A program made the position numbers and the translations under genes. Below are positions 6,163 through 62,600 of a stretch of 64,000 nt of DNA, piece after piece. Under the pieces are notes generated by a model that had not been told where the DNA came from, did not search any database, and worked only from the letters and a program-made list of their open reading frames with translations. Source of the stretch: Dictyostelium discoideum (lineage: Eukaryota); contig CM000153.2 in assembly GCA_000004695.1 (NCBI GenBank), positions 2,368,001-2,432,000 of the forward strand, written 5' to 3'. Numbering within the stretch: the stretch's first letter is position 1; every line of letters starts with the position of its first letter.

Positions 6163-7772
6163 ATTTAAATTCCAATTCCAGTCAGGTAAAAATCTTAAAA
6201 TTAATTGTTGAAATTGTAAGAAACCAATACCAGTACCATCAGTTGATAAATATTCAAATTCTTCTTTTAAATCTTTTAATTTCTCTAAATCGAATTTAGT
6301 TGATTTTAGTAGATAACGAAGATCATTATCTTCTTCTTTTTGTTTAACTTGTTTCTTTGTAATTTCCCAATGTTTTGATTTTAAATCTTGAATTCTCTTT
6401 TTAGAGAGTACAATACCAATTCTTTTATAGGAATTTTCAATTGTTTTGAAAAGGTCAGGATTAAATGGTCTACCCGATAGAATATCAGTTACTTGACCAT
6501 GATTCTTTGCCAACATCAATGAATTTAAATTCATTTCAATTAAACCTAATGCAATCTCTAATAGTACTCTACTACCTCTAATAATGAAATTATCCCAAAT
6601 TATTAATGCACATTGTGCAGGTAATGATACTGTAAATAAACATAAAAACCATTCCATTGATAATACTGGTATAATGGCTCCAATATTCTTTAAATGTTGA
6701 TTCAATTCTGGAAATATCTCTTCCATTAAATCTAATAATACATTTTGATCAACTTGACTTCCTAACATTGTCTTTGTATAATAATCTGTAAGTAATTGAT
6801 CTGTAATATGTGATAAACACCAAAACACTTGCTCCTCTATATATACATATATATATATATAAATATACAAATATATATATATAAATAAATATAATTTATT
6901 ACTATTAATAATTATTAATTTTAAAATTATAAATTATAAATTATAATACAAACCATTTTCAATAATCATTAATAAAAAAAAAGTTATATAATTTAAAGAT
7001 TGACAATAACCAACAGTTGTTGTTTCACTAAAAACAAATAAAATTCTTTTTAATTTATCTTTAAATTCTGGATCTAATGATTTTGGATGTGTTGGAAATG
7101 TTCTCTCTAAATCCTATAAAAATTGAAAAAATTAAAAATATATTAGAATAATATTATAAAATCAATCTATTAATAATAATAAATAAATAAAAAACATACT
7201 GATAAAATTTCATTTTTATATTTTAAATTATTTATATTAGATTTACTACTAGTACTATTAAAAGATTCTGTTGATGTTGATAATATTAAATCATTATAAC
7301 TTGAATTCTTTGGCATTGTTGTTGATGTTGATGTTGATGTTGTTGAATATGGTGATGATGGTGTTGAAAATATTTGGAGATCAGTTAAATCATTTGATAA
7401 TTCATCTAGATTGAAATTTTCATTTTTTAATAATGACCAATAATAACCTTTTTTAAAATCTAAATTATAACAATCCAAGAATATTGTCCAAATTGATTTA
7501 CGATATTTTGGATGAATACCATGTGATAATAGTTCTCTAAATGATTCTTCATGTGAATATCTTTTTAAGTATCTAAATATATCCTCTTCTGTATGACATG
7601 TAGTTTGAATATAGTGTGTCCATTCTTCTAATCTTTCATCTTCATTCTTTTTTTGTTGTTTTAATTCTTTAATTAATTCTGAATTCTCTGAATACCTATA
7701 CTCAAATCCATATTCATCTATAAATATATCTTGATCAATTATAATATCTGTATCTTCTTCAAATGTTTCCAT
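5104..7772 (-). CDS. TBC-domain Rab GTPase-activating protein with a C-terminal EF-hand-like segment and poly-N/Q tracts; 3 exons approx 7200..7772, 6954..7113, 5104..6836
   Basis: Exon 1 has RELLSHGIHPKYRKSIWTIF (TBC motif A). Exon 2 has DLERTFP (Arg finger) and YCQSLNY (Gln finger). Exon 3 continues the TBC C-lobe (LLDLMEEIFPELNQHLKNIGAIIPVLSMEWFLCLFTVSLP) and has MFKLMDKDDDNLLNFKELVESLS (EF-hand-like). Donors GTATGT/GTTTGT and TATAG acceptors were read on the minus strand. Confidence 0.75.
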
Positions 7773-8163: not shown

Positions 8164-10598
<2,435 letters not shown>

Positions 10599-10838
10599 TT
10601 ATTTGTTTTGGTTTTTGAGTAGAAAAAAAAAAAATAAATAAAAAAAAAAAAGAAGATTTTTATTTTTAAAATTTTTTGAGAAAAAAAAAAAATAAAATAA
10701 AATTAAAAATAAAATAAAATTAAAAATAAAACAAATCAAAATTTATTTTTTTTTTTAGAAGAAAAACAATTATTATTATAATTATTATTTTAAATGATTA
10801 TTTTTTATTTTTATTTTTATTTTATTTTTATTTTATTT

Positions 10839-12249
10839 TTAATTATAAAATACTAAACTTGGGAATATATAAAAGTATTTTTTATAAGCAGTGTCGAAAA
10901 TATTTTTTGGAAGACGAAGATTTAATAATAAACCTTTTGTACGTTGAACGACAGCACATTGAATGATGACTTTACAATCTTTATCGATTTCAGGATCACG
11001 ACCATCCATATTGATACGAAGAGCACGATAATTATCGATACGAGCAGGATCTTGAGAGATGATACGTGCATTTTCGACAGAGTTTTCATAGAAAGACAAG
11101 AGGAGATCTTTATATTGCTCCAATTTGATTGGAGCACCCAAGTCCTCCAATGTGATATTAAATATTGGATACATTGGATAATCTTGATCGAGGAAAATTA
11201 AAGAGGTGAAATTGGATGATCTTGGGTCCATTGCGAATGATTTTGGAATGTGAACGTAGAATTTGAAGATGAAATTATAGAAACGATTGTAAACTGGTGA
11301 TTCTAAAAATGATGTGCCAATCTTTAAATCGGCTATAAAACGTTCGAATAGTGGTTCCCAAGAGTTTGATTCATTCTCTAAACATGTAAAGACCAATGAG
11401 AGATGAATATCTTCAATGGTTACATCGTAGTGGAAATGATGTTTATTATTAGTGATGGTAGTTGATTTTTTAGTTTCTTTAACTTGAGGAGTATTGGTTT
11501 TATTTTGAACTTCAACAACTAATGATAAGTTATTTGAAGAGTCTGTATATTCTTGATGTTTAGATTCTTTTTTTGATTTCCATGTCTTTGGTACCCAATA
11601 TTGGTAATAATAGGTTGCTGCTGATGATGAGCTTTTAATACTTGATGTGAATGCTTCCATTTGAGTGTATTTAAATCCTTTTGCTTCGAAATTCTTAAAG
11701 GTTTTACAACAATGTTCCAATGCTGGTAAATTCTTTGTGAATTCACCATTTGATGAGGTATATGAAATGATGAATACATTGTTATTCTTTATGAAGAAAC
11801 ATTGTTTATTTCTTACTTTTTGTTCTGGTGCATAATATGATAAAAAGTCTGCACTGTTTGAACCGATTTTACATGAACCTGTTTCAATATGGGTTGCATT
11901 AATTTGTTGAATTTGTTGAATTGAAATATCTAATAATTGTTTTGGTGTCATAGATTGATCTGATCCAGTTGATCCTAAAATTATTATTATTATTTATTAT
12001 TTTTTTATTAAATTCACTAATTCATTAGTAAATAGTTTTAATTATTATTATTTGTTTAAAAAAAAAAGAAAAAAACAAACCTTCTAAATTTTGAATTGTA
12101 ACATTAAGACTTGGTGAGTTTTTATCGTTTGATTCCATGAAAGATGCTAAAAACATTGCTGAATGTTCCTTTACTATCCAATTTGATGGATATTCAAGTT
12201 CAAAACCATATTGATTTGAAACGTATTTTGAGTATTGAATATCGCTCAT
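10839..12249 (-). CDS. Hypothetical protein with a PsbP/DcrB (DUF1795)-like N-terminal domain and an uncharacterized C-terminal domain; 2 exons approx 12071..12249 and 10839..11983
   Basis: Exon 1 MSDIQYSKYVSNQYGFELEYPSNWIVKEHSAMFLASFMESNDKNSPSLNVTIQNLEG joins through a GTTTGT...TTTTAG intron to STGSDQSMTPKQLLDISIQQIQ... The GFELEYPSNW...QSMTPKQLLD pattern is characteristic of the PsbP/DcrB fold. No family match recognised for the C-terminal 300 aa. Confidence 0.45.
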
Positions 12250-12796
12250 TTTAATATTTGGGTTTTATGATATTTGAAAAGAAAGAAAAAAAAAAAAAAA
12301 AAAAAAATTAAAAATTAAAAAAAAAAGAAAAATTAAAAAAAAAAATTAAAAATTAAAACCGAAAAAAAAAAATTAAAAAAAAAAAAATAAAAAAAAAAAT
12401 AAATTTAATTAAAGGTCTTAATTCTCCCATGATTTTCATTTTTAGATAAAAGTAAAGAGGAGTTTAGTTTCCAAAATTAGAATCAAATTTCATCTAAATT
12501 TTCTTCTAAAACATAGGTGACTAAATTCAAAAAAATTTAAATAAATTATTCTCTTATATATAAATATATATAAATATTAATGAAATTGTTTGAAAAAAAA
12601 AAAAAAAAAAAAAAATCCTTTTTCGCGCTTTTTTTTATTTTTTTTTTTTTAATTTTTTTTTTATAAATTTTTTTTTTTTTCAACTTTTTTTTTTTTTTTT
12701 TTATTCTTTTTTACTTACTCTTATATTACATAATATATATTTTTTTGTATATATATAAAAAAAAGTTAAAATAAAATAAAAAAAAATAAAATAATA

Positions 12797-14087
12797 ATGG
12801 ATAGTGATGAAGAAACAGTTTTTAAAACACCAATAAAAAGAAAAAAGAGTACAACAATTATTGATGAAGAAGATGATGATATTTTAATAGATAAAGTTGA
12901 TAATGGTAATAACAAAGGTGATGATGAAGATATTAATTTTAAAACACCTTCACCAAAAATAAAGTCAAGATTAAAGAGAATTAAATCGTCACCTTCTTCT
13001 GACATTGATTTCACTCCATCACCAAAATCAAACCAAAAATCCAAAAATGGCACACCAAAAAGTACAACATCTTCACCAAAAATTGCAAATTCAACATCAC
13101 CATATAAACCAACAATAACACCACCAACAACTCCATCACCATCAAAAAAGGACCAAATTAAAAAGAAAATTAATAAATCTCCAATTTCTGCTACCCAATC
13201 TCCATCATCATCACCATTATCACAACCAAAATCAAAACCAATTCAAAATAATAATGATAATAATAGTTATGATAATGAAATTACTAATGATATTGACAAT
13301 CCTTGGGATTTCGGTACATCAGATATAAGAATGAATGATGATGGATCAATGTCAAATGATAATCAATATTTTGCAACACCTGAAAAATATTCTTCACCAT
13401 CAAAACAACAAGACCAAGATAAATCTCCATCACCTCAAAAAAATGTAAATAAAAAAAATGAAAAAGATTTTAAAATTAGTAACAAAAAAGTAATTTTAAG
13501 ATCAATTAAAGATAAGGACTTACTTTCTTTTAAAGGGGTTTCAAAACTTTATAATTCCTTAAAACTTTCTGGTTTCTCCACAAAACAGTCAAATAAAGTA
13601 AGTAATATTTTTTAAAATATATATTTTGACCATTTTATTTTAGAAAAAGGAAAATATAATAAAATAAAATAAAATAAAATAAAAATTTAAAATTAAAATA
13701 TTTCTATTTACCAAACTATAGGCAAATTTAGAAAAGTTATTTGGAATTTACTCTAAATGGACAAAAGAGCTTAATCCATATGTTACACTAGAAAATTCAA
13801 TTATTAATGTTGAGAGGTTGGGTAGAAATAGAATTGTTAGAGTAAGTAATAAAAAAAATAAATAAATAAAAAATTTAAAAAAAAGAAAAAGAAAAAAAAA
13901 AAATAGAATACTAACTTTACACTTTTTTTTTTTTCTTTTTTTTCTATTTATAAATCTTCTTTATAATTTTTTTTATTTTATTTCGTTAATAAATTTTTAG
14001 AATCATATTGATGATTTAAAGAATGGTATAGTGTTTAGTTATAACGAACCAAAAGTAGGTATCATTTTTTATTATAATTGGTGATTT
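12797..14087 (+). CDS. TIPIN/Csm3/Swi3-family (Timeless-interacting) protein with a long S/P/K-rich N-terminal region; exons approx 12797..13597, 13712..13840, 14001..14054 (or read-through to the stop at 14087)
   Basis: Exon 1 ends SFKGVSKLYNSLKLSGFSTKQSNK at an AAG|GTAAGT donor. Exon 2 ANLEKLFGIYSKWTKELNPYVTLENSIINVERLGRNRIV and exon 3 NHIDDLKNGIVFSYNEPK follow the TIPIN core pattern (KLDAQRLISKRGLPAL...[37 protein letters not shown]). Whether the 3' end reads through to 14087 or splices on to 14948 is unresolved. Confidence 0.5.
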
Positions 14088-14329
14088 TTTTTTTTTTTTG
14101 GCAATAGATTGTTTTGGTAAAATGTCGGTTATCGTTTTTTTAAAATAGTGTGTTTGTAATATAACCTTAAATATCTTTAATTTTTTTTTTTTTTTTTTGG
14201 TCCCAAAATGGACTCTTTTCCACTTTTACTTGTTTTTTTAAGTTAATAATAAAAAAAAAAAGAAACCATTTATAATAAAAAAAAAAAAAAATCATTTATA
14301 ATAATAAAAAAAAACAAATCATTTATTTA

Positions 14330-14800
14330 TATTTATTAATCCACAAACATTTCACCACAACACAACACAACACTTCACAAAACACAACTATATTGGGTGG
14401 CTTCTGTGAGGTTAATGCATTTAAATTTTTAATCTCCTCGTTTACCACCCTAAATTAATTGCTAATGATGTCGTTTTTTGAAATTTTACATTTATGGTGT
14501 GTTGATTAATATGTGGGTATGTGTGTGTGTGTAACAACCACCCTTCCTCTTATTATTAACCTCCATTTTTACCCGAATGTTTATTTCATTTTTCACAATC
14601 ATTATCTCTTATCTCCTTATACCTATGTTGCAAAGATACAATTATAGGACAGATACGGATAAGACAACTTTATTATTATTATTATCATTTTTATTTTTAA
14701 AATAATTTATGGTTTATAATTGACCTTTTATTTGTTTTACATGTGTGGTGTGTGGTGTGTGGTGTGTTGTAAGTACTTGTGTGGTTTGTAATCAAAATAA
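14330..14800. promoter_or_regulatory. GC-richer island with (CACAA)n, G/T-rich and (GTGTG)n blocks (CAE / G-box-like elements of the kind bound by G-box binding factor in developmental promoters)
   Basis: Read directly: cacaacacaacacaacacttcacaaaacacaac; gtgggtatgtgtgtgtgtgtaacaaccaccc; gtgtggtgtgtggtgtgtggtgtgttg. Composition departs from the surrounding roughly 85% A+T. Confidence 0.35.
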
Positions 14801-38547: not shown

Positions 38548-38579
38548 GAATATTGGTTGTTATTGTATGATTGATCCAT
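34392..38579 (-). CDS. Very large (1395 aa) poly-N/poly-H-rich protein with a central beta-rich domain and a C-terminal block of ankyrin repeats; single long exon
   Basis: ANK repeats GNTLIMIAAKEGRTDMVEKLIEMGADL..., TGLHIATERGHYRLVKFIC, TAFHYAVQDNNCRIVSIFI, TPLHWAAALGRYNIFVKLVEAGSNINAVDGDGETPIFKAIV. Upstream conserved region PFPIYTVKTHVLVPAPVVKVANYKGD...CYGYYFKKGRTEILYVDLDP of unknown family. Extreme homopolymeric N, H and T runs. Confidence 0.7.
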
Positions 38580-38900: not shown

Positions 38901-39435
38901 AATTGAAAAAAATAAAATTTTTTTTCTGCGTTTTGCAAGACAAGGGGTGGTTGAAAGAAAAAAAATAAATAAAAATAATAAAATAAAAAAATTTATTATT
39001 TGTTTAATTATTAAAGTATTTATTTATAAAAAATGCTTTTTGAATTATTATATTATATTGTTATTATTATTTAAATAATTTTTTTTATTGTATGTGTATT
39101 TTTTAATAATATTGTATATTGATAATAAAAAAAAAAAAAAAAAATTGAAAAAAAAGTTGAAAAAAATAAAAAAAAATAAAAAAAAATTGGAAAATTTTGT
39201 CTTAAAGACTGAGGAAAACCTTTCTTCCTTGGGAGACTTCTTTGTACACACAATTTTTTTTAGTAAACAAAGTCAAAGGATATTATATGAATAATATTTT
39301 ATTACCTCAAGGAAATTTTTGATAAACAAAGTCAAATGATATTATGTGAATAATAATTTTTTATTATTATCTTCCATTGTTTTTTTTTTTTAAAAAAAAA
39401 AAAAAAAATAGTAATAAATTGAAATAAATTCAATT

Positions 39436-39478
<43 letters not shown>

Positions 39479-40032
39479 AACAAGTTAATTAATTTGTATG
39501 TTTTTATTATTAAATACACCATTAATTAATTTTATTACTATTATTATTTTTAATCTTTTTTTTTTTTAAAATAATATCTTTTTTTTTTTTCCTTTTTTTT
39601 TTATTTTTTTTTTAAAATTTTTGGTATAAAAATGTGTGGTGTTGAGAAAAAATATCTCTCAAATGAAAGACAGTGCGATAGTCTAAAATTTTCAAAAAAG
39701 AGAATTCTTTGTGTTTGAGCCAGGGGCTTCATATTTATGTGAAAATTTTAATTGCTCAAAGTCTAAAAAAAATAAAAAAAAATAAATAAAAATTTAAAAT
39801 AAATTGAAACAAATATAACCAATGATAACAAATAGAATTTTTTTTTTTTTTTTATTCCCCAACCAAACATTTTTATTGTTTTTTTTTTTTTTTTTTGTTT
39901 TTTTTATGTTTTTTGTTTTTTTTTGGTTAATCTTAAAGTTAAATAATAAAAGATTTTGTTTGGTTATATTTATCTTTTTTTTTTTTTATTTTTTTTCTCA
40001 AAAAACTTTTTCCTTTACAACTTTTATCTTTT

Positions 40033-40145
40033 GTCATTTAATTTTTTTTTTTTTTTTAAAATATCCGGCAACACCACCTGATGTTTTGTCATTTAATTTT
40101 TTTTTTTTTAAAATATCTTCGGCAACATCACCTGATGTTTTGAAA
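40033..40145 (+). repeat. Tandem duplication of a roughly 57-bp unit GTCATTTAATTTTTTTTTTTTTTAAAATATC(C/TT)CGGCAACA(C/T)CACCTGATGTTTTG
   Basis: Two adjacent near-identical copies read directly. Each contains a GC-richer CGGCAACAYCACCTGATG core. Confidence 0.7.
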
Positions 40146-40462
40146 AAAAAAAAATAAAAAAAAAAATTTAATAAAAAAATAAAATAAAAAAAAAATTTAA
40201 TAAAAAAATAAAATAAAAAAAAAATTTAAAAAAAAAAATCTTGAAATAGTTTGGGTTATTTTCATTTTTTTTTCTTTTTTCTCTTTTCTTATTTTTTTTT
40301 GTTCACAAATCTTTTTTGTTTTTAGTAATAATTTGTCAGAGATCACATAAGTTTAGAACTTTATTATCAACCAACGAGTTAGTTTAAAATTATATTAAAA
40401 TAAAAATAAAAAATTCCAAAAAAAAAAAAAAAAAAAAAAAGGCCCAAAACCAGAATGTTTCA

Positions 40463-41165: not shown

Positions 41166-41368
41166 ATAAAAAGCAAAATTTAGGTGCCTTTTAAACTTTT
41201 AGTATTTATTAGATTATCTTTTTTGATAGTTACTCATATATTTTAAATTATTAAATACTCAAAGCCAATAAATAATTTAATCAAAAAGGGAAATAAATTT
41301 TATGGATTTTATCACATTCTTAAATGATTTTTTTTTTTAATTATTTGATTGAGAAATAATAAAAACAA

Positions 41369-41413
<45 letters not shown>

Positions 41414-41763
41414 TAAAAAAATATATTGTTATATTATATTTAAATGAAATTTCGTTTTTCTCAGTTTGATTTTTTAAACAGTTAAAATTTAAAAATGATC
41501 AATTGGAATGCAAAAATCCTTTTTTTTTTTTTTTTTTTTTTTAAAAAAAATAATATTTACTGTATAACATTATTATTATTTATAAAAACTGTTCTTTGAT
41601 ATATGTTGTTTCTAATAACATTTGATTTAAATTTGAATTTTTTTTTTTATGATATATCTTAAAATTTTATTTGTTGGCATTTTGGTTTCCTACATTATAT
41701 AAATAAATTAATTTGAAAAATCTTGTTGGTCAAAGTGGAAAATTAACACCTTTTTTTAAAATT

Positions 41764-43508
41764 TTATAATTTTAGATTATTAAAATCTTTAAGATTTTTA
41801 CGTAATAGTTTACCAGTTGCAGATTTAGGAATTGCAGGTATGAAAAAGATACCACCTCTGAAATGTTTATAATTTGCAATTTTTGGGTGAGCCCAATCCA
41901 AGAGTTCTTTTTCAGTAAGAGATTCATTTTGTTTAATAACAACGAAACCTCTTGGTACTTCACCCATATCACCTTTTGAAAGACCTACTACACAGGCATC
42001 TGCAACTTTTGGATGAGATAATAGTAATGCTTCTAATTCAGCAGGTGGTACTTGGAAACCTTTACATTTGATCAATTCCTTTGATCTATCGATGATAAAG
42101 AAATAACCATCTTCATCAACATAACCAATATCACCAGTTTTTAAGAATCCATCTTTATCTATGACTTCATTGGTTGCCTTTTCATTGTTATAATAACCCA
42201 ACATAACATTTGGACCTTTAATACAGATTTCACCCTTTTCACCCATACCTAAATTCTCACCAGTCTCTGAAGAGATGATTTTAGCTAATAGATTGGGTAA
42301 GAGGGTACCAGAGGAACCCGATTTAACTAATCCATTTGGGGTTACAAAACAACATGGACTAAGTTCGGTAGCACCATAACCTTGTTTAATTACAAGTCTG
42401 CCTTTGAATCTTTCTTTAATTAAATCTTCAATCTCTGAACCTAATGGAGCAGCACCACAAAATAGTGTACGTAAACTTGAGAGATCAAATTTATCGACGA
42501 TTGGTGATTTTGCAAACATGATAGCAATCGGTGGAACAATGAATGACATTGCAACCTTATACTTTTTAATTAATTCCAAGAATCTAACTGGTTCGAATTT
42601 TGGTAAGGTAACAATTCGATAACCTTGTTTCACCATCAACATTATGTGTAACATTAAACCAAAGGAATGAAAGAATGGTAAGACACCAATAACGCTATCA
42701 TTCTTTTTATAGGTTGATGTTTCAATGGTTTGAGTTTGATATGTATTTGAGACTAGATTATAGTGACTTAAACAAACACCTTTAAATAATCCAGTTGTGC
42801 CACTTGAAAATGGAATAATAGCTGTATCTTTCGTTAGATCAATTCTAACGATTGGGTAATCTTTACCATTATTATTAGTTAATTGATTAAACGACATTAC
42901 AATTCCATCACTAGATAAAGTTAATTGATCAATTTCTTTTAAAGTTTGACCTGCAATATCGACTAAAATCACTTTTTCAACACTTGGAAAAACTCTTTTT
43001 AAATCATTTTTAATCTTTTCATATACTGCTAATGTTACTGCTAAATATCTTGGTGAAACTGTTGCTAATGTATGTGATAACTCTTCAATTGTATAGTCTG
43101 GATTAACTAATGATGTAATGCCTCCCATCAATAATGTACCATGAAATATTGGTACATATTCTGGTAAATTTGGTAGAATTACTCCAAGTACATCACCTTT
43201 TTTAATATTTAATTTATTTAAACCACATGCAACCTAATTAAAAAATAATAAAAATAAAAATAAAAAAAAAAATTTTTAAAACTTGTTTGGAAATAGAAAA
43301 AAAAAAAAAAAAATTTATTTACCTTTTCAATTGTATCAGCGACAAAATGTGAAGAATATTCTTTAAAAGTTAAACCATCAACTAATAAAACTTGATCAGG
43401 TTTATATCTTATATGTTTTAAAATTAAATGTGGTATTGGTTTCTCTGGTATTATAATATTTGGGTATTTTGATGTGAAATAAGTTTGTCCATTAATTATT
43501 CTAATCAT
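41764..43508 (-). CDS. 4-coumarate-CoA ligase-like acyl-activating enzyme (ANL/AMP-binding superfamily), tandem copy A; 2 exons approx 43323..43508 and 41764..43233
   Basis: Exon 1 MIRIINGQTYFTSKYPNIIIPEKPIPHLILKHIRYKPDQVLLVDGLTFKEYSSHFVADTIEK ends at an AAG|GTAAAT donor. An AATTAG acceptor joins VACGLNKLNIKKGDVLGVILPNLPEYVPIFHGTLLMGGITS. Box I FSSGTTGLFKGV, box II GEICIKGPNVMLGYYNN, QGYGATELSP. Total length about 552 aa, as for D. discoideum 4cl1-3. Confidence 0.85.
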
Positions 43509-43613
43509 CCTTAAATTTTTAATTTTTTTTTTTAAAATGGTATTGTGTTTATGCTATGGGTTATTATTTAAAAAATTTTCTGTTGGTATTAATATATTAC
43601 ATTTAAATAAAGG

Positions 43614-43652
<39 letters not shown>

Positions 43653-44191
43653 AACAGTTTTATTAATTGTTTGTTTTACTATTATTAATAGTAAATTTTT
43701 TTTTTTTTTTTTATATTTTTTATAGTATAAAAATGTGGTGTTTAGAAAAAATATCTCAAACTGGAGATTTTTCAAAAATAAAAATACTAACAAATATTTT
43801 TCTCTTGCCAAACATTTTTTATTTGTTTATTATTTTTTATTATTACTATAATTAATATTATGATTATTAAAAACTTATTAATATTAAACAATTTAATTCA
43901 TTACATATCAAAAATTAAAAAATTGCAATCGATAATAAAAAAAAAATCTTGGTCCATAATATTTTCTTTTTTTTTTTTGAAAATGTTTTTTTATTTTATT
44001 TTCTATTTTTTATTATATTTTTTTTTCCTCCCTACTGTTTTTTTATTTGTAATAAGTAAAAAAAAAAAAACACGGTAAAACCGAATCTCGAGAATATCTT
44101 TTAAAATTTTCTTAATGACAAGACCTAATTTTTTTTTTTTTATTTTTAAAACTTGTTTGGAAATAGAAAAAAAAAAAAAAAAATTTATTTA

Positions 44192-44378
44192 CCTTTTCAA
44201 TTGTATCAGCGACAAAATGAGAAGAATATTCTTTAAAAGTTAAACCATCAACTAATAAAACTTGATCAGGTTTAGATCTAATATGTTTTAAAATTAATTG
44301 AGGTATTAGTTTCTCTGGTATTATAATATTTGGGTATTTTGATGCGAAATAAGTTTGTCCATTAATTATTCTAATCAT
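44192..44378 (-). pseudogene. Orphan duplicate of 4CL-like exon 1 plus the intron start, with no downstream exon 2 (duplication relic)
   Basis: MIRIINGQTYFASKYPNIIIPEKLIPQLILKHIRSKPDQVLLVDGLTFKEYSSHFVADTIEK is followed by GTAAAT. The homologous intron runs to the acceptor region ...ACCTAATT (about 44124), then similarity to exon 2 stops. Confidence 0.7.
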
Positions 44379-44842
44379 CCTAGAAATTTTTTTTTTTTTT
44401 TTTTAATAAACAATGGCGAAACTTAAATTAGGAGAATTTTGGAAAACAAAGAAATAATAAAAAAAAAGTTAAAAATAATAATTATTTATTTTTTAAAAAA
44501 TGGTATGGTGTTTAAAAAAAAAAGTTAAAAATAATAATTATTTATTTTTTGCCTCGTAAAAAAAAAAAATAATAAAGTATATTAATTTGTTTGTTTTAAT
44601 TAATTTTATGTTACGCCACATTAATTAATTTTATTTAGTATTTGGCTTTTATCGATAAAAGGTGTTTTTTTTTGTATACCTTTCTTCATTTATCCTAATC
44701 TTTTTAAATAATAAATTGAAAAAAAATCAATAAAATGTGAATAATAAAAATTTAGGTGCCGAAAAAAAGGTGTTTTGGATTTGTATGGGGTGGAAGAAAA
44801 TAAAAAAATATAAGTAAAAAAAAAAAAAGAGGAGTCAAACCC

Positions 44843-44864
44843 CACAAACGCCCCATAAAATTAC
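44843..44864 (+). promoter_or_regulatory. Tandem pair of DUSE-like motifs (ACCCCACAAA + GCCCCATAAAA) matching the Dictyostelium upstream sequence element consensus [AT]CCCA[CT]AA of ncRNA genes
   Basis: Read directly in aaccccacaaacgccccataaaa. Embedded in a locally GC-richer patch between the orphan 4CL exon and 4CL copy B. Confidence 0.3.
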
Positions 44865-45036
44865 TTTTCACAAATAAAAAATTAAAAAAAAATAAAAAAA
44901 TACAAAAAAAAAGTGGTGTTGTCATAAATAGTAAATCACGCAAGATATTTTAGACTAGTAAAAAACAGTGCTATTTGAATTCAAACCGACATTAAAAAAT
45001 AATTTTATCTTTTTTTTTTTTTTTTAATTTAAAAAA

Positions 45037-45098
45037 ACAGATGGTCTGTTTTTTTTTTTTTTTTTTTTTTTTTCTCCCCATCTGTTTTTTTAAATTAA
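45037..45098. terminator. Perfect 9-bp inverted repeat AACAGATGG ... CCATCTGTT enclosing a 35-nt T/C loop (hairpin), about 200 bp downstream of the 4CL copy B stop codon
   Basis: Read directly. Function (3'-end processing signal, replication-slippage relic or protein-binding palindrome) is unknown. Confidence 0.25.
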
Positions 45099-45290
45099 AA
45101 GACCAGGAGAAAAAAAAATAAAAAAACAAAAAATATCAAAGAATTTTATTCAGTATTATTTAGAAAAAAGAAAATATTAATAATTTATACTAATAAAATA
45201 TATTTTTTTATATAGAATCAATCCAAAACATTAGTTTAGCAACTTGTTGTAAATTTTAAATTTTTATTTTTTATTATAATTTTATTTATT

Positions 45291-47024
45291 TTATAATTTC
45301 GGAGGATTAATATCTTTAAGATTTTTACGTAATAGTTTACCAGTTGCAGATTTAGGAATTGCAGGTATGAAAAAGATACCACCTCTGAAATGTTTATAAT
45401 TTGCAATTTTTGGATGAGCCCAATCCAAGAGTTCTTTTTCGGTTAGAGATTCATTTTGTTTAATAACAACGAAACCTCTTGGTACTTCACCCATATCACC
45501 TTTTGAAAGACCTACTACACAGGCATCTGCAACTTTTGGATGAGATAATAGTAATGCTTCTAATTCAGCAGGTGGTACTTGGAAACCTTTACATTTGATC
45601 AATTCCTTTGATCTATCGACGATAAAGTAATAACCATCTTCATCAACATAACCAATATCACCAGTTTTAAAGAATCCATCTTTATCTATGACTTCATTGG
45701 TTGCCTTTTCATTGTTATAATAACCCAACATAACATTTGGACCTTTAATACAGATTTCACCCTTTTCACCCATACCTAAATTCTCACCAGTCTCTGGAGA
45801 GATGATTTTAACCAATTGATTGGGTAAGAGGATACCAGCGGAACCAGATTTAATTAGTCCACTTGGAATTACAAAACAGGCTGGACTAAGTTCGGTAGCA
45901 CCATAACCTTGTTTAATTATGAGTTTTCCTTTGAATCTTTCTTTAATTAAATCTTCAACCTCTCTGCTTAATGGAGCAGCGCCACTAAATAGTGTACGTA
46001 AACTTGAGAGATCAAATTTATCGACGATTGGTGATTTTGCAAACATGATAGCAATCGGTGGAACAATGAATGAAATTGCAACCTTGTACTTTTGAATTAA
46101 ATCCAAGAATCTAACGAATTCAAATTTTGGTAGGATAACAACACAATGACCTTGTTTTACCATCAAAATTAGGTATGTCATTAAGCCATAGATATGAAAA
46201 AATGGTAGTTGACCCATAACTGTATCATTCTTTTTATAGTTTGTCGTTTCAACGGTTTGAGTTTGATGTGTATTGGAAACGAGATTATGATGACTTAAAC
46301 AAACACCTTTAAATAATCCAGTTGTACCACTTGAAAATGGAATAATAGCTGTATCTTTCTTTAGGTCAATTCTAACGATTGGGTAATCTTTACCATTATT
46401 ATTAATTAGTTGATTGAATGACATTACAATTCCATCACTAGATAAAGTTAATTGACCAATTTCCTTTAAAGTTTGACCTGCAATATCTACTAAAATCACT
46501 TTTTCAACACTTGGAAAAACTCTTTTTAAATCATTTTTAATCTTTTCATAAACTGCTAATGTTACTGCTAAATATCTTGGTGAAACTGTTGCTAATGTAT
46601 GTGATAGCTCTTCAATTGTATAGTCTGGATTAACTAATGATGTAATGCCTCCCATCAATAATGTACCATGAAATATTGGTACATATTCTGGTAAATTTGG
46701 TAGAATTACTCCAAGTACATCACCTTTTTTAATATTTAATTTATTTAAACCACATGCAACCTAATTGAAAAATAATAAAAATAAAAATAAAAAATTGATA
46801 TTAGTTTTGGAAAAAAAAAAAAAAAGAAATTTATTTACCTTTTCAATTGTATCAGCGACAAAATGTGAAGAATATTCTTTAAAAGTTAAACCATCAACTA
46901 ATAAAACTTGATCAGGTTTCGATCTAATATGTTTTAAAATTAAATGTGGTATTGGTTTCTCTGGTATTATAATATTTGGGTATTTTGATGTGAAATAAAT
47001 TTGTCCTTTAATCATTCTAATCAT
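45291..47024 (-). CDS. 4-coumarate-CoA ligase-like acyl-activating enzyme, tandem copy B; 2 exons approx 46849..47024 and 45291..46760
   Basis: Same architecture and motifs as copy A. About 88-90% amino-acid identity to copies A and C by eye. Confidence 0.85.
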
Positions 47025-47363
47025 CCTGAAATTGTTATTTTTTTTTTTAAAAATATCAAAAAAAAAAAAGAATAAAATAAAACTTAAACCAGGAGAATTT
47101 TGAAAAAAAAAAATATTTAAATTTAAAATGTTAAAAAATGGTATGGATGTGTTTAAGCTATGGGCTAATATTTAAATAATATACAATAGGTAATATTTTA
47201 CAAACAAATTAAAAAATTAAAAAAATATCAAAAAAAAAAAAAATTAAATAAAAAAAAAAAAAAAAAATCAAGTTTAAAAATTTGTGTGTTTTAATTATTA
47301 TTATATTAGACACATTAATTAGTTTTATTATTATTATTTTTTCTTTTTTTTCTACTTTAAAAA

Positions 47364-47399
<36 letters not shown>

Positions 47400-48041
47400 A
47401 TTTTTTAAAATGTGTGGTTTAGGAATAAGATCCCTCAAATAAGATTATGCCAATTGAAAATTATAAAAAATTAATTTTCCAATATAAAGAATAAACAAAG
47501 AAAAAATGTTTTGCACTGGGTTTATAAAATTAAACAAAAATTTAATATAAATTAAAACAATCTCTCATTTTTCAAAAATGATTCAATCAATTAAAAAAAT
47601 GAAAGATTGCAAAATTTTATTAATTTAAAATTAAGTTTATTAATATCTTCGGTGAAAAAAAGAAAATTCACAGAAGAAAAAAAAAAAAAAAATCATTTTC
47701 CACATAAAACTATTCAAATTAATTTATTTATTCAAACAAATAAAAATTTATGAAATATTTGAAATATCTAATAAAGAAAAAAAATCGAAATAATATACAT
47801 ATAGCATATTGAATAGTTTTAAAAAAAAAACAAAATTCAAACCAAATATTATTAAAAACTAAAGAATGTTTTTCAGTAAATATTATTTAGAAAAAAAGAA
47901 AAAAATTTAATAATCTATGCCAATATTATATATATTTTTTTTTATAGAATCACATTAGTTTAATAACTTGTTGTAAGTTGTGTTTAAATTTTTATTTTTC
48001 GACTTAAGTTTAATTTTTTATTTTTTATTTTTTATTTTATT

Positions 48042-49558
48042 TTATAATTTTGGAGGATTAAAATCTTTAAGATTTTTACGTAATAGTTTACCGGTTGCAG
48101 ATTTAGGAATTGCAGGTATGAAAAAGATACCACCTCTGAAATGTTTATAATTTGCAATTTTTGGATGGGCCCAATCTAAGAGTTCTTTTTCGGTTAGAGA
48201 TTCATTTTGTTTAATAACAACGAAACCTCTTGGTACTTCACCCATATCACCTTTTGAAAGACCTACTACACAGGCATCTGCAACTTTTGGATGAGATAAT
48301 AGTAATGCCTCCAATTCGGCAGGAGGTACTTGGAAACCTTTACATTTGATCAATTCCTTTGATCTATCGACGATAAAGTAATAACCATCTTCATCGACGT
48401 AACCAATATCACCAGTTTTTAAGAATCCATCTTTATCTATGACTTCATTGGTTGCCTTTTCATTGTTATAATAACCCAACATAACATTTGGACCTTTAAT
48501 ACAGATTTCACCCTTTTCACCCATACCTAAATTCTCACCAGTCTCTGGAGAGATGATTTTAGCCAATTGATTGGGTAAGAGGATACCAGCGGAACCAGAT
48601 TTAACTAATCCACTTGGAATTACAAAACAGGCTGGACTAAGTTCGGTAGCACCATAACCTTGTTTAATTACAAGTCTGCCTTTGAATCTTTCTTTAATTA
48701 AATCTTCAACCTCTGAACTCAATGGAGCAGCACCACTAAATAGTGTACGTAAACTTGAGAGATCAAATTTATCGACGATTGGTGATTTTGCAAACATGAT
48801 AGCAACTGGTGGAACAATGAATGAAATTGCAACCTTATACTTTTGAATTAACTCCAAGAATCTAACTGGTTCAAATTTTGGTAAGACAACAACACGATGA
48901 CCTTGTTTCACCATCAACATTAAGAATAACATTAAACCATAGATATGAAAGAAAGGTAATATACCCATAACTGTATCATTCTTTTTATAGGTTGATGTTT
49001 CAATGGTTTGAGTTTGATATGTATTGGAAACGATATTATGATGACTTAAACAAACACCTTTAAATAATCCAGTTGTACCACTTGAAAATGGAATAATAGC
49101 TGTATCTTTCTTTGGGTCAATTCTAACGATTGGGTAATCTTTACCATTATTATTAATTAGTTGATTGAATGACATTACAATTCCATCACTAGATAAAGTT
49201 AATTGATCAATTTCTTTTAAAGTTTGACCTGCAATATCGACTAAAATCACTTTTTCAACACTTGGAAAAACTCTTTTTAAATCATTTTTAATCTTTTCAT
49301 ATACTGCTAATGTTACTGCTAAATATCTTGGTGAAACTGTTGCTAATGTATGTGATAACTCTTCAATTGTATAGTCTGGATTAACTAATGATGTAATGCC
49401 TCCCATCAATAATGTACCATGAAATATTGGTACATATTCTGGTAAATTTGGTAGAATTACTCCAAGTACATCACCTTTTTTAATATTTAATTTATTTAAA
49501 CCACATGCGACCTAATTGAAAAATAAATAAAAATAAATAAAAAAACTATTAATATTTG

Positions 49559-49591
<33 letters not shown>

Positions 49592-49784
49592 TATTTACCT
49601 TTTCAATTGTATCAGCGACAAAATGTGAAGAATATTCTTTAAAAGTTAAACCATCAACTAATAAAACTTGATCAGGTTTAGATCTAATATGTTTTAAAAT
49701 TAATTGTGGTACTGGTTTCTCTGGTATTATAATATTTGGGTATTTTGATGTGAAATAAGTTTGTCCTTTAACTTTTATAATCAT
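48042..49784 (-). CDS. 4-coumarate-CoA ligase-like acyl-activating enzyme, tandem copy C; 2 exons approx 49600..49784 and 48042..49511
   Basis: Same architecture and motifs as copies A and B. Confidence 0.85.
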
Positions 49785-50842: not shown

Positions 50843-53462
50843 TTACATATTTTTATATTTTGCTTCTAAAGTTAAAATTGCATTTGGAGAAATTCTTTTT
50901 GTTCTTTGTAAGAAATCAATAATGATTTTACCTTCTTCTAGAGAAAAGAAAGGTTGACTCATTTTCTCTAAAAGATAATTTAATAATTCATCCTCTGCGG
51001 AAAGGGCTTGATAAAATTGACGAATACGGTCAAAGAAAATCTCACGTTTTACAATGATATTTGAAAGATTCTGTTGAAGTGTGAACACATTTTTACAAAG
51101 TTTAGCAACACCATTATCATTGATTGAATTGACATGTACCAATTTCGAGATTAATAATTTACCAATTAATTTTGCAATACCACTAAATAAGAAATTACAT
51201 TTATCACTTGTTAAATAAATTGACATCATTTCTTCACTTGCTGATAAATCTTTATTCAATTCAACAATGAATGAATCAGGATCAGTTCTTTCCTCTTCAC
51301 ACATATATTGAGCTCTCTTAAATCCTTCTAAAAAGTAAAAACAATGAATACGATATTCAATACGTAATGCTAATAAACAACGTTTTGATAAATCTTTAAA
51401 TCTTTGTGCAATATCCTTAATTGGTTCTTCCATTGTTTTCAATGCTTCAATTGATTCTGCTGACATTTGATTAAATGTACCTATAAAATTATTACTACCA
51501 GTAGTTGTACTATTATTTTCTTTATTACTTGCTGTACTATTACCACCACTATTAATACCACTATTTAATTTCGATGGTGTTTTAATAGAATCAACTTGTT
51601 GTTGCTGTTGTTGTTGTTGCTGTTGTTGTTGTGTATATTTTTCTTTTTGATCTTCTTGAACAATTAATAATTGAACAATTTTATCAGCTAACCAATTTAA
51701 ACTATGACTCATATTGGCCAACATTGTTAATTTTTCAATATTTAAAATTAATTGATTCTTTAAAACTGGTTTTTCAGGATGATTGAATAAATCAGACTCT
51801 AATTTAAATTCATATTCTTCCTCTCTTGAATCTTGAAATTTAGCAACATCTTGTTTCTTTGAACTTACAGCTAATGATGCTAATAGATATTTATAGAGAT
51901 CTGTATTCAATAGTTGATTAGTTAATGTTGGATCTATTTCTTGACTGAATTTACTTAAACATTTTTCATAATATCTTAAGAGTGATACTTGAATGATTGC
52001 ACCAAACTCTACGACATAATGACTCATAGCCACAATATCAGAGAAAAGTTCAATAACAAATTGAAATATTTGTAAGGTACTATTTAAAATTGGTTTAGTT
52101 TCTTTTAATCTAAATACTAATTTATATCTTTCCAATGGTTTGAATGCTTCTGTACTTTCAATTGAATGAGCGAATCTATCCTTATAATCATTCTTTATAT
52201 GTTGTAAAAAGTTTCTATGAACAAAATCATCTATATATAATCTTAATAAACCTTTTTTACTATTTTGATTATGATAACTATTTGTAGTAGTAGTAGTAAT
52301 GGTGGTGGTGGTTTTAGTAGTTGTTGGTGTACCAGTTCTATCTCTAAGGGTTTTATCTAAATGGTCAGTAAACTTGACAATCATTGGATAAATTGGTGTA
52401 ACATTATATTGTGAAGCTTTAAATATACTAATTACAGCAGGACCACCACTATTTGAATCAATAGCATCAGCACCTGAAGTACCATTTGGTGAAGTTGGTG
52501 AAGTTGTTACCATTGGACTAATTGAACCATTCCAATTATCAGTAACAATTGAATTTGTAAAACTAAATAGTCTTTGAGACTTACCACTATTTGATTCAGT
52601 ACCATCTGGATTTAATCTACTCTTTGTACTTAATAATAAACTTGATGTATCTTGTAAATGAACTCTTAACATTTCTCTAATCTCTTTTTGAATGATTTCC
52701 CAAACTAATGATGCATCATAAACATCTGCAATTTCAACTTTTGATTTTTGAAGTTTAGTTGGTTTTGGTGTACCTTCGAAATCATTATCGGAATCACCAC
52801 CACCACCCTCAGTTTCTTCTTTAAAATCAAATTTATTTGCACGAATTTTTAATTCACTTTTTCTAATTGCATCATTAAAAATTTTACTTAATTGAAGATG
52901 ATTCTTGAAAACCATATTAACTTTATTGAATATCATTTTCAATAAATCTACCAATGGTATATTGTGAGTTTGATTAGCTAATAAATCATTTCTATTGAAA
53001 GTTTCAGTCAAGAAATTGAATGCTGCTGAATATTCATCGATATTACTAAATGTTGCACTACCAATATGTGAATTCTTACTTAATACACTTGGTGATAATC
53101 CATTAGCCCCAATATTTGATGATGTTGAGGATGTTGGTGATGATGACGATGCTGTAGAACCATTACCATTTATACCACCACTACCATTCATACTATTATT
53201 ACCACCACCATTGCTACCATTACTACCATTACTACTATTTGATGATTCGCCAGGCATCTTTGGTATAACTCTACCTTCACTATGATATACATTGGTAATA
53301 AGTGTTATACTATTTGTAATTGCAGTCTTTAATTCAATTGAAATTCTACCTAAAATTAAACCAACCGCTGGTGATAAATATTCTAAAACATTCAATGCTT
53401 CAACTAATAATGTCATAAATAATTTTCCATCTTGTTCTGGATCAATATTTAAATCTTCTTTA

Positions 53463-59628: not shown

Positions 59629-62600
59629 GTTTGAACAACCATTTTGAATTGATAAATCATTTAAATAAGAAGTAATAATTTCGCAAGCTCTTGGTATTAT
59701 AATATTAACTGTTATATCAGCAGATACACCATAATCCCTAAGATTATTAATGATAGGATCAGATTTCAATGATGGATCTTTGACGAAATCAATTAAAGAT
59801 GATAAATAGAATGACATATAATTTGCAATTCTTAAATGACAATGATTATTGAAAAATGATTCTCTGCACTCTTGATCATCAATATAGAATGCTATACCAG
59901 GCAAAAGGAAACAAAGATAATAACCAAATTCGTCACGGTATTGTAAAAGATATTGCAATATGAAATGAAGTGATAACTTTAAGTTTGAAGACATTGATTT
60001 AGTTTCCTCTGCAATCCATAACCCTAATAATTTGACACTACCAATCACCAATTGATTTGGTTTAACCTCTGGTGTTTCCTCTGCAACTTGTTTTAAATAA
60101 TTCAATATAATTGATATTGATTCAACTAAAATATCATTGATTTTACCAAATGTATCAATTGAAAATATTGCAATATTTGATTTCTTAATTTTATTATTAT
60201 TATTATTATTATTTGATGGCGATGTTGTTGGTGGTGTTGGTGTTAATGATGATGCTTCAATTGTCACATTTGAATTAAAAGTATTACTATCATCAAAATA
60301 AGTTGTTAAGAATAAAACTGTATTTTCAATAGAAAGATAACAAGAAGATAATAATGATTCATTTTGTTTACTAATTACTTCTTCAAGTAAAAGGATCATA
60401 TGAATTTCAGATCTAATCATTTGTAAAGATAATAATAAGAACTTCTCTGATGAAATCATTAATTGATTGAGTTGGTCTGATGATTTCATGAATAACCATT
60501 TACCACCTAAAACATCCAATAACATTGAATAGAAAATGATTGAATTATTTCTCCATTCCTGTTTTAATTTCTTACTTGAAAATATTGAATACAATCCAAT
60601 CATTAAATTATCCCTCCATGACATTATTCTATCATTTATTATCTTTTTATTAAAATCACTAAAATCTTCAAAATCTTCTTCAAAATTAATATCATTATTA
60701 TTATTATTATTTAAATCACTATGTTTTTGTTTTGAATTATTATTATTAATATTATTATTATTATTTTCATTATCATTATTAATTTCATTTGATTTGTTTT
60801 GAGTTGTTATTAAATTATTTACAGATGAAAATAGTGAAATAAAAGATTGAGTTGTAATATCTTGATGATGAGTAAAGATTGGTATGAGTATTGATAGAAT
60901 TGAAAATTTAAATTCATCGAATCTTTCCCTAAAAATAATTGATAATGGTTCAATTAGAATTAAATCATTGTTTCTGTTTGGCCGGCTACTATTATTCTTT
61001 TCATTACTACTACTATTTGATTTATTTTTCTTTTTTTTATTATTATTACTATTTTCATTTATAGATTCATTATTATTATTATCATTAGTTACTTCATCTG
61101 TTATAGTAGTAGTATTATTTGAAGTAGTAGTAGAAGTTGTTGTTGTAGTTGTTGTTGTGGTTGTTGTAGTTGTTGTTGAATTTGAATTTTTATTATTAAT
61201 ATTATTAATATTATTTGTATTAAGTAACGATGGTAATATTGTTGAAGATAATGGTAATGATTTTCTTTGAATATTGTAAACAACCAACAACACTAAGTTT
61301 ATAGTCAATTGAAATGTATTTGATAATACAATAATTGTTTGCTCTCTCTTTTTTTGTGCTATTCTTTCTTCTTCCTCTGAATCTAATTCTGATGAATCTG
61401 AATATTCTTCTTCACTATCATCTTCGTCCTCATAACTGCTATCATCTTCGTCATCATCATCTTCTTCTTCTTCTGTAATATCTTCATCATCACTATCTTT
61501 AACTACTAATTTCGCCTCTACTTCCTCGACGATATCATCGTCATCATCTTTTACTTGAACACTAGGATTACTTGTATTATTTGTGTTTATAGTTGTAAAC
61601 TTTTTAGAGATATTATGAATATATAAAATAAAGTCACACAATAATCTTAAATTCTCTACACTTGATAATGTATCTAAAACTGAATTATATTTATTTGTTT
61701 TCGAAGATATTGCCTCTGTTTTATCATTATCAGACTTATTTGATTTCTCTTTAATTATATTATTGTTATTACTACTACTACTATTACTATTATCACCATT
61801 ACAATTATTATTTAAATTTGAAGAAGAAACATTTGTTTTTGAAGAAGAGTTCTTTTTTAATACCTTTAGTTCCTCTCTAAGTGTATTTTCAAATAAACAT
61901 AATGAATATAAAGTTTGAACTGATTCATATAATAAATCTACATTTGATGACTCACTATATAGATGATAAATGTAAAAATGTATTAAAATTTATATATGTA
62001 TATATAGGTTTGTGATGGCTTTTGATATTAAAAATCCTACCTTTCAATTGAACGTTTTAAAATCATTGGAACTATTTGAACGGTTAACGGATGATAAAGG
62101 ATATTAAATAAAATTGAAGTTTTAGGTGTCGGTATTGGTTTTGAATTTTCTGTTGTTGCTGTTGTTGTTGTTGTTGTTGCTGATATTGTATCAGAAACTT
62201 TTACCTGTTGATCATTTGATGCTGTAATACCATCATCATCAAAATTTGCTCTTTTATTATTATTATTATTATTATTATTTTCATTGCTGTTATTACTATT
62301 ATCAGTTCGTTTTGTATCATTTTTATCATCCTCTTCTTCTTCCCCTTCTAATGGTTGTTGAACTGTACAAAATGTTGAAAGTATTGCAATTGATAAATTT
62401 ACATATGAAATAGACTCGACACCTTTTTATTATTATTATTATTATTATTATTAAATTATTATTTGGTTAGAACATAATATTAGCTATCTTACTACTACTA
62501 CAACTAAGGTTAAATGTAGATTTATATAATACATACCAGGTACTTTTGGAGTTTGTAATAATCTATAAAGGAAATCTAAACCTAATGAAGAATATACTTT

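Follow-up and report, generated by a model that had tools for sequence, protein, structure and literature searches.

An orphan first exon in the 4cl gene array of Dictyostelium discoideum as the probable remnant of a truncated paralogue

The gene array and its orphan exon

The stretch of DNA analyzed here (64 kb of the Dictyostelium discoideum AX4 genome, referred to as the window) is very AT-rich and carries on its minus strand a tandem array of three intact two-exon genes resembling 4-coumarate-CoA ligase (4CL), each encoding 551 amino acids (aa). Copy A (43508..41764) is 4cl3, with exon 1 at 43508..43323, the intron at 43322..43234 and exon 2 at 43233..41764; its protein is 100% identical to P0001, the 'Probable 4-coumarate--CoA ligase 3' of D. 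discoideum AX4. Copy B (47024..45291) is 4cl2 and has the sequence of P0122, 'Probable 4-coumarate--CoA ligase 2'. Copy C (49784..48042) is presumably 4cl1. Pfam assigns an AMP-binding domain (PF00501) to residues 34-410 of 4cl3 (7.7e-75) and an AMP-binding_C domain (PF13193) to residues 461-537 (7.7e-18). The parent genes would encode adenylate-forming (ANL) enzymes of the 4-coumarate-CoA-ligase-like kind, the name '4-coumarate-CoA ligase' itself being taken from the database. The array is bounded by a 1395-aa gene with its ATG at 38579 and by an 857-aa gene ending at 50843. Between 4cl2 and 4cl3 lies an additional, orphan exon 1, which is the subject of this study.

The orphan exon (44378..44193, minus strand) comprises an ATG and 62 intact codons, 186 nucleotides (nt) without a stop, and its peptide reads MIRIINGQTYFASKYPNIIIPEKLIPQLILKHIRSKPDQVLLVDGLTFKEYSSHFVADTIEK. 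An earlier note, made from the sequence alone, had placed an extra exon 1 between copies A and B, followed by its donor site and most of the intron. All three are present, and the boundary of the exon moves to 44193, as 44192 is the first base of the donor. Sequences were compared with blastn (standard scoring, low-complexity filter) and with an AT-aware Smith-Waterman alignment supported by shuffles and whole-window controls. A tblastn search of the window returns the orphan as the sole additional 4CL piece, matching residues 1-63 of 4cl3 at 93.7%. At the nucleotide level, blastn aligns 44142..44406 with 43272..43535 of copy A (95.8% over 265 nt), 44161..44395 with copy C (93.6%), and 44156..44643 with exon 1 and the upstream region of copy B (76% with gaps, E = 3e-106). 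The similarity to the full copies is far above the AT-rich background, and comparing the array with itself, as had been proposed earlier, yields more than AT-rich matching. A permissive self-BLAST (+1/-1, no low-complexity filter) was discarded, as it returned hundreds of AT-rich pseudo-hits.

The homology is not confined to coding sequence: it extends to blocks of the upstream region, to the donor with 51 intron nt and to an acceptor octamer. The donor GT and the intron start (44192..44142, minus strand; the first 51 intron nt) are identical to 43322..43272 of 4cl3, including a run of 17 T. What follows at 44141..44123 is a remnant of the 3' end of the intron, where 13 A (A13) stand in place of a T-rich tract of about 32 nt and are followed by the acceptor, AATTAG, and GT. 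This octamer (AATTAGGT) occupies 44130..44123, with the AG at 44126..44125 and the GT at 44124..44123 corresponding to the first two bases of exon 2. It occurs only four times on the minus strand of the 64 kb, namely at the three true acceptors and at the orphan, and the chance of meeting it within a 60-nt zone is about 0.002. Homology to the full copies stops 2-3 nt into exon 2; the earlier statement that it ends at the exon-2 acceptor is thus correct to within these few nucleotides.

On the 5' side the orphan is preceded by a promoter and 5' untranslated region (44379..44643, minus strand), whose paralogues precede B and C and whose orthologue in other genomes lies in front of copy 3 (see below). 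Its reported homology to the copy-B promoter is real: AT-aware local alignments give 66/77 and 48/55 matches to B, as well as 49/55 to C, and the three sequence blocks quoted in the earlier note are found 46-258 nt upstream of the orphan ATG. The upstream region of 4cl3 (43509..43840, minus strand) is different, as it is without some 85 nt of the proximal part found in B, C and the orphan. Orphan and copy A score 27 when their upstream regions are compared, which equals background, and the resemblance ends beyond 27 nt upstream of the ATG. Because its upstream region and intron are shared with the parent, the orphan is, as judged from its sequence, not a retrocopy.

Tandem arrays with about 94% identity are prone to mis-joins, and an abrupt stop of the homology is what a mis-assembly of the AX4 reference in this repetitive array would produce. 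An independent assembly of the same lineage speaks against it. The long-read assembly GCA_054883475.1 (CM142510.1, locus tag ACTFIT) differs from the window by 3 mismatches and otherwise by gaps in homopolymer length only (99.5% identity across 13.5 kb of the array), and it contains 44420..44100 of the window exactly. This match refutes a mis-assembly, which can practically be dismissed.

Positional orthology and the breakpoint

Syntenic loci were taken from recent Dictyostelium assemblies by a protein search with 4CL and compared between the same two flanking genes. The assemblies appear to be the long-read genomes of PMC12745789, which assigns two tropical isolates to D. discoideum and regards two others as possible cryptic sister species. 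Five full 4CL copies are present in L001 (GCA_054859355.1) and three copies in L002 (GCA_054859385.1). L003 and L006 (D. cf. discoideum) are one and the same locus, containing a full copy, a 5' partial copy (aa 1-381), a second full copy and a 3' fragment (aa 321-551). Two copies are found in L004 (D. cf. discoideum) and one in L005 (D. dimigraforme), both of which were compared by pattern searches and by eye. The copy number at the locus ranges from 1 to 5, and each genome has different relics.

Collinear blastn matches and a matrix of upstream scores identify copy C with copy 1 (in L001, L002 and L006) and copy B with copy 2 of the other genomes. The orphan takes the place of copy 3: its upstream region and the preceding spacer are collinear with L001 (45042..44861 with 9358..9515, and 44508..44142 with 9859..10244 at 88.5%) and with L002 (44948..44526 with 9294..9721, and 44508..44144 with 9857..10242 at 88.2%). 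The upstream scores are 104 against copy 3 of L001 and 105 against copy 3 of L002, compared with 27-53 for the other pairs involving the orphan. The link to copy 3 of L006 (11705..12024, 85%) is weaker than these two. Part of the orphan upstream region has been duplicated in tandem with a period of 56 nt (44459..44550; two 36-nt copies, 100% identical); this segment is single-copy in L001 (9859-9911) and L002 (9857-9910), and both AX4 copies match it. The upstream region of 4cl3, on the other hand, has its orthologue at copy 4 of L001 (43840..43660 with 12991..13177, score 123).

Copy 3 covers residues 1-551 in L001, L002 and L006, although in L002 its frame is broken by a 5-nt gap close to the exon-2 start, which is either real or an assembly error. 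As copy 3 is full length in three genomes, the orphan is probably the 5' module of a once-complete third array member that lost its exon 2 in the AX2/AX4 lineage and that is most likely non-functional. Its derivation from a formerly complete gene is borne out by L001 and L002 and, more weakly, by L006. The anatomy of the orphan, its positional orthology and its presence in an independent assembly are direct observations; the polarity and mechanism of the loss we infer. Because L006 carries the label D. cf. discoideum and thus belongs to a provisional sister species (PMC12745789), it serves as the outgroup for the polarity of the change.

According to this reading a third paralogue would originally have possessed an upstream region, exon 1, intron and exon 2. 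A deletion or replacement in the AX2/AX4 lineage would then have taken exon 2 together with the 3' flank (at least 1.5 kb), starting 2-3 nt beyond the acceptor and beside the long T-rich tract of the intron. The place of exon 2 would since have been held by 282 nt of unrelated AT-rich sequence, directly adjoined by the upstream region of 4cl3, and gene conversion between the fragment and 4cl3 would have continued across the approximately 265 nt common to both.

The local layout could also suggest that the orphan was born truncated, through a partial tandem duplication of upstream region, exon 1 and intron with its breakpoint at the acceptor. A full copy follows immediately downstream, at 870 nt from ATG to ATG, as expected for such an event, and in exon 1 and intron the orphan is closest to precisely this adjoining copy (95.8%, with an identical intron start). 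Beyond 27 nt 5' of the ATG, however, the orphan upstream region is of the copy-3 type and that of A of the copy-4 type, so orphan and neighbor do not share an upstream region of the same age. Moreover, the orthologous upstream region fronts full-length genes in three other genomes. The sequence past the junction also has no second copy in the window, L001, L002 or L006 and does not recur upstream of the orphan, which leaves a duplication junction unsupported. Taken together we consider a truncated birth unlikely.

This post-breakpoint segment (43841..44122, 282 nt) is AT-rich and has no detectable homologue: no match above background was obtained in the window, L001, L002 or L006. Homology to the copy-4 upstream region of L001 begins sharply at its end, with 43840 corresponding to L001 12991 (49/50). 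Two origins are conceivable, namely filler that was inserted where the deletion was joined, and a spacer remnant specific to this lineage. The orphan and a second, promoter-only element had been put forward in the earlier note as marking the duplication breakpoints of the array. That they are relics of the array holds, but the 282 nt are unique and copy 3 is full length elsewhere, so their standing as duplication breakpoints is not supported. The presence-or-absence comparison with relatives that had been recommended leads to the same point: the position of the orphan is held by a full-length copy 3 in three genomes, and the orphan is most likely not a duplication scar.

The position of the break at a splice acceptor had likewise been called noteworthy. 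This position is real, yet it is suggestive at most, since other relics break inside exon 2: at aa 453-530 in L001, and at aa 381 and aa 321 in L006. Splice sites are not generally preferred as array breakpoints. By chance alone, a break would fall within about 3 nt of either splice junction in less than 1% of events, which amounts to a few per cent over the breakpoints seen. The T-rich intron tract beside the break is a plausible fragile or slippage-prone site. As a weaker variant of the very unlikely live-module reading given below, the acceptor-exact break may reflect a breakage mechanism specific to splice sites or T tracts instead of chance.

The second relic ('P'; 39442..39664, minus strand) is a gene-less distal upstream region situated 2.1 kb downstream of 4cl3 and approximately 0.9-1.1 kb upstream of the ATG at 38579. 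It had been reported as a promoter-only copy at about 39470..39770 and is confirmed here with refined borders. The element matches the B upstream region (47230..47421) at 151/187 positions and that of A (43620..43757) at 117/129 (as 63/67 + 54/62). With tblastn no further 4CL exon relics were found near 39.4 kb or elsewhere in the window. L001 (20021), L004 (15110) and L006 (16692-16931) have counterparts at an identical location, some 1 kb 5' of the next gene, whereas none was recognized by pattern searches and by eye in the single-copy locus of D. dimigraforme. Because of this shared position the relic would predate the split of L001, L004, L006 and AX4, and it would be uninformative on recent events in AX4. 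It may be a promoter left behind by a lost copy, or else a repeat at the flank through which unequal crossing-over took place in the past. With one relic this old and the other read as a deletion remnant, the two do not give the order of the duplications, as had been hoped.

Nor are such relics as unusual in this compact genome as was first assumed: three other genomes of the complex bear fragments or frame-broken copies, and 26 tgr pseudogenes are reported for AX4 (PMC12745789). Copies 2 and 3 of L002 are both frame-broken near the start of exon 2 (7486..7530 and 10300..10320), be it in reality or through assembly errors. The defective copies of L006 are the 5' partial one at 10001..11270, which ends in a 36-nt local repeat, and the 3' fragment at 14009..14712. 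Between copies 3 and 4 of L001 (12300..12990) a stretch that is not AT-rich (12300..12650) is followed by an inverted exon-2 fragment (aa 453-530, 12642..12866); part of the former stretch is shared with L006 13844..13918, and the stretch may be a foreign or transposon-derived insertion.

Sequence exchange and coding potential

Only 7 of 186 nt differ between the orphan and exon 1 of copy A. Among 15 exon-1 sequences from four genomes, four substitutions are unique to the orphan: T12A, P24L and two synonymous changes. Its distinguishing codons include GCA at codon 12, CTA at codon 24 and TCT at codon 53. T12 is kept in 12 of 14 copies and P24 in 13 of 14. Derived characters shared with 4cl3 are observed as well. 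Codon 6 is AAT (Asn; K6N) in the orphan and 4cl3 only and AAA (Lys) in the remaining 13 of the 15 copies, and both have an intron start of the 'copy-3 type', different from that in copy 4 of L001, the positional orthologue of 4cl3. Orphan and 4cl3 differ mainly within the first 104 nt of the exon; of the last 133 nt that they share, just 1 is different. The shared K6N and intron type point to later gene conversion between the orphan and 4cl3.

A similar patchwork is seen among the complete genes. Per 100 nt, A, B and C differ at 0-2 positions in the first 300 nt of exon 2 and in parts of its 3' end, against 12-21 in mid exon 2 and 24-26 in the intron, and in the homogenized stretches exon 2 of 4cl3 is nearest to its AX4 paralogues. 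This pattern indicates that concerted evolution is active in the array. Gene conversion has, we infer, occurred repeatedly and still involves the orphan, and this exchange with 4cl3 would explain why the exon looks fresh and has an intact frame without a need for selection. Sliding-window distances were also used in an attempt to assign exon 2 of 4cl3 to copy 3 or copy 4, an approach that was abandoned because concerted evolution within genomes blurs the signal.

Several points weigh against the loss of exon 2 from a complete gene. By event count alone, both 'complete, then deleted' and 'truncated, then repaired by unequal crossing-over elsewhere' require two events. For copy 3 of L006 the orthology depends on an upstream match of only about 120 nt, with about 73% identity. 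A simple deletion does not account for the replacement of the T-rich tract by A13 while the acceptor octamer survived. 4cl3 itself is a mosaic of a copy-4-type upstream region and a copy-3-type intron, which does not settle the exact order of events. Its 3' flank, moreover, matches the 3' flank of copy 3 in L001, at 41644..41729 in inverted (74/84) and at 41280..41197 in direct orientation, the inverted part making up roughly the first 100 nt of the flank, and a further piece (41516..41386) is shared with the flank of the last L006 fragment (113/128). The pieces matching L001 can be accounted for only if the flanks are paralogous or an additional rearrangement took place. Finally, the open reading frame (ORF) and the donor of the orphan are intact, and its unique substitutions are divided evenly between two non-synonymous and two synonymous ones, so that loss of function is probable rather than demonstrated.

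At the 3' end of 4cl3 two other details were noted. The protein terminates in ...NNLKL (41764..41790), as opposed to ...NPPKL in B and C and in every L001 and L005 copy read as far as its 3' end. Past the stop codon A stays homologous to B and C for no more than 3 nt, while between B and C the homology extends over 150-180 nt of 3' flank.

The orphan codes for residues 1-62 only, without any exon-2-encoded part, while the AMP-binding domain of 4cl3 spans residues 34-410; tblastn detects no exon-2 relic near it. Splicing to its own acceptor remnant gives a 69-aa product and read-through an 88-aa ORF. The 69-aa product matches no Pfam family, and neither an exact look-up of the 88-aa ORF nor a word-indexed protein search with the 62-aa peptide returned a match; a look-up of P0001 was empty as well. 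By its predicted coding content, the orphan is unable to encode an adenylate-forming enzyme alone and is most likely a non-functional gene fragment. The four unique substitutions are too few to test for constraint.

An intact ATG and 62-codon ORF, together with a donor context identical to that of 4cl3, would also fit an alternative promoter and first exon of 4cl3, spliced from the donor at 44192 to the acceptor at 43234/43233 over a 959-nt intron. Both introns are in phase 0, so the join would be in frame, and exon 2 of 4cl3 is the sole in-frame partner downstream. The resulting protein would again have 551 aa, with four N-terminal differences from 4cl3 (T12A, P24L, H27Q and Y35S). Upstream conservation comes near that of functional copies (scores of 104-105 versus 131 for B and 123 for A), and a highly conserved distal block, described below, is retained. 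Even a gene finder once linked the exon to 4cl3: the obsolete 663-aa model P0123 (UniParc UPI00004E53BA), covering 44378..41764 of the window, joins the orphan peptide to 50 aa from the 4cl3 upstream region and to the complete 4cl3. This model is a prediction and not transcript evidence, however, and its link runs through implausible mini-exons that translate the upstream region of A. The current curated model EAL65024.2 (551 aa) omits the orphan exon. Furthermore, two of the four unique changes hit residues that are otherwise conserved (T12 and P24), the orphan's own acceptor remnant would lead to the 69-aa dead end, and an intron of 959 nt that contains a complete promoter and exon would be far longer than typical Dictyostelium introns. 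A role as alternative first exon thus seems distinctly unlikely. Very unlikely, in our estimate, is the related scenario of a live module, in which the loss of exon 2 would have merged two genes into one with two promoter-plus-first-exon modules, and the orphan promoter with its conserved distal element would drive a 4cl3 isoform. If true, the locus would capture a moment in the emergence of variable-first-exon loci from a tandem array.

Surrounding features and comparison with known systems

Upstream of the orphan lies a conserved spacer block (44912..44990, plus strand), which shares GTGGTGTT with 'block 4' of the upstream regions of A, B and the 39.4-kb relic. About 65 nt of it (GTGGTGTTGTCATAAATAGTAAATCACGCAAGATATT...AATTCAAACCGACAT) are nearly invariant across AX4, L001 and L002, compared with about 70% identity in the flanks, and AX4 has a 28-nt insertion inside the block. 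On the gene strand the shared block takes the form AACACCACA(C)ATTTT; the motif AACACCACA(N0-2)TTTT is found in the window only at 39629 and 43729, and at equivalent places in related loci. The spacer block could be a CA-rich cis-regulatory element or a small RNA gene, and it matches no Rfam family. C-rich motifs (CCCCACAA and CCCCATAA) are present upstream of it at 44840..44858.

About 200 nt past the stop codon of 4cl2 we noted an inverted repeat (45004..45044 and 45078..45118) whose 41-nt arms are 80% complementary, with a perfect 22-nt core (TTTAATTTAAAAAAACAGATGG / CCATCTGTTTTTTTAAATTAAA), and flank a T-run. The repeat is the source of sub-threshold Rfam matches: a scan of 36-52 kb gave only such chance matches, on this hairpin at 45.0-45.1 kb. 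No tRNAs were found in the 64-kb window. The spacers 43803..44122, 44636..45137 and 47480..47860 have no homology to one another or elsewhere in the window above background.

On the 3' side of 4cl3 a gene-free stretch of 3.2 kb extends towards the ATG of the next gene (38579). It contains several short tandem or direct repeats at 40000..40240 and 39200..39340, such as the two copies of ...gtcatttaattttttt...aaaatatc(tt)cggcaaca(c/t)cacctgatgtttt and the two copies of aaacaaagtcaaa(g/t)gatattat(a/g)tgaataata. Much further along the window, 59871..60216 (minus strand) gives a weak tblastn match (E about 0.1) to residues 181-264 of 4cl3, including the SSGTTG motif region, and may belong to a further gene for an adenylate-forming enzyme.

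A literature search found no paper on the 4cl genes of Dictyostelium or their gene IDs, nor any on genomes of D. dimigraforme. Truncated copies in tandem arrays of Dictyostelium itself are represented by the partial tgrB/tgrC copies of AX4 (PMC12745789). Like truncated unprocessed pseudogenes in birth-and-death arrays in general, the orphan keeps promoter and intron, sits inside the array, is polymorphic between related genomes and still exchanges sequence with its neighbor. It differs from them in consisting of first exon and intron only, in breaking within 2-3 nt of the acceptor and in having an intact frame. Partial gene duplicates, whose duplicated span ends inside a gene, have been described among young duplicates of nematodes and flies. 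They resemble the orphan in placing a promoter and 5' exon upstream of a full copy; the orphan flanks, however, are without a duplication-junction repeat and its same-position orthologues are complete. Variable-first-exon loci such as UGT1A and the clustered protocadherins splice several promoter-plus-exon-1 modules to common downstream exons. The 4cl locus shares with these two tandem promoter-plus-exon-1 modules with identical phase-0 donors in front of one exon 2. Unlike them it has two modules only, the upstream one being a putative module that probably stems from gene decay.

The orphan is accordingly best viewed as a truncated paralogue in a tandem array with fast turnover, of a well-known kind and a case of ordinary gene death. 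It opens no new question and does not reveal the duplication order, but it has practical consequences: the exon misled the first automated AX4 gene model into a 663-aa fusion, and with 7/186 nt separating it from exon 1 of 4cl3, short reads and primers can cross-map between the two. The two 265-nt direct repeats, 870 nt apart, also form a substrate for recombination, the outcome of which would delete the 4cl3 promoter. Summarizing, the locus provides a clean small example of how a tandem array of metabolic genes decays and is remodelled over short evolutionary distances. Within the D. discoideum complex the array varies from 1 to 5 copies, and fragments or frame-broken copies, each time different ones, occur in three other genomes, while gene conversion would keep even a truncated fragment coding-like.

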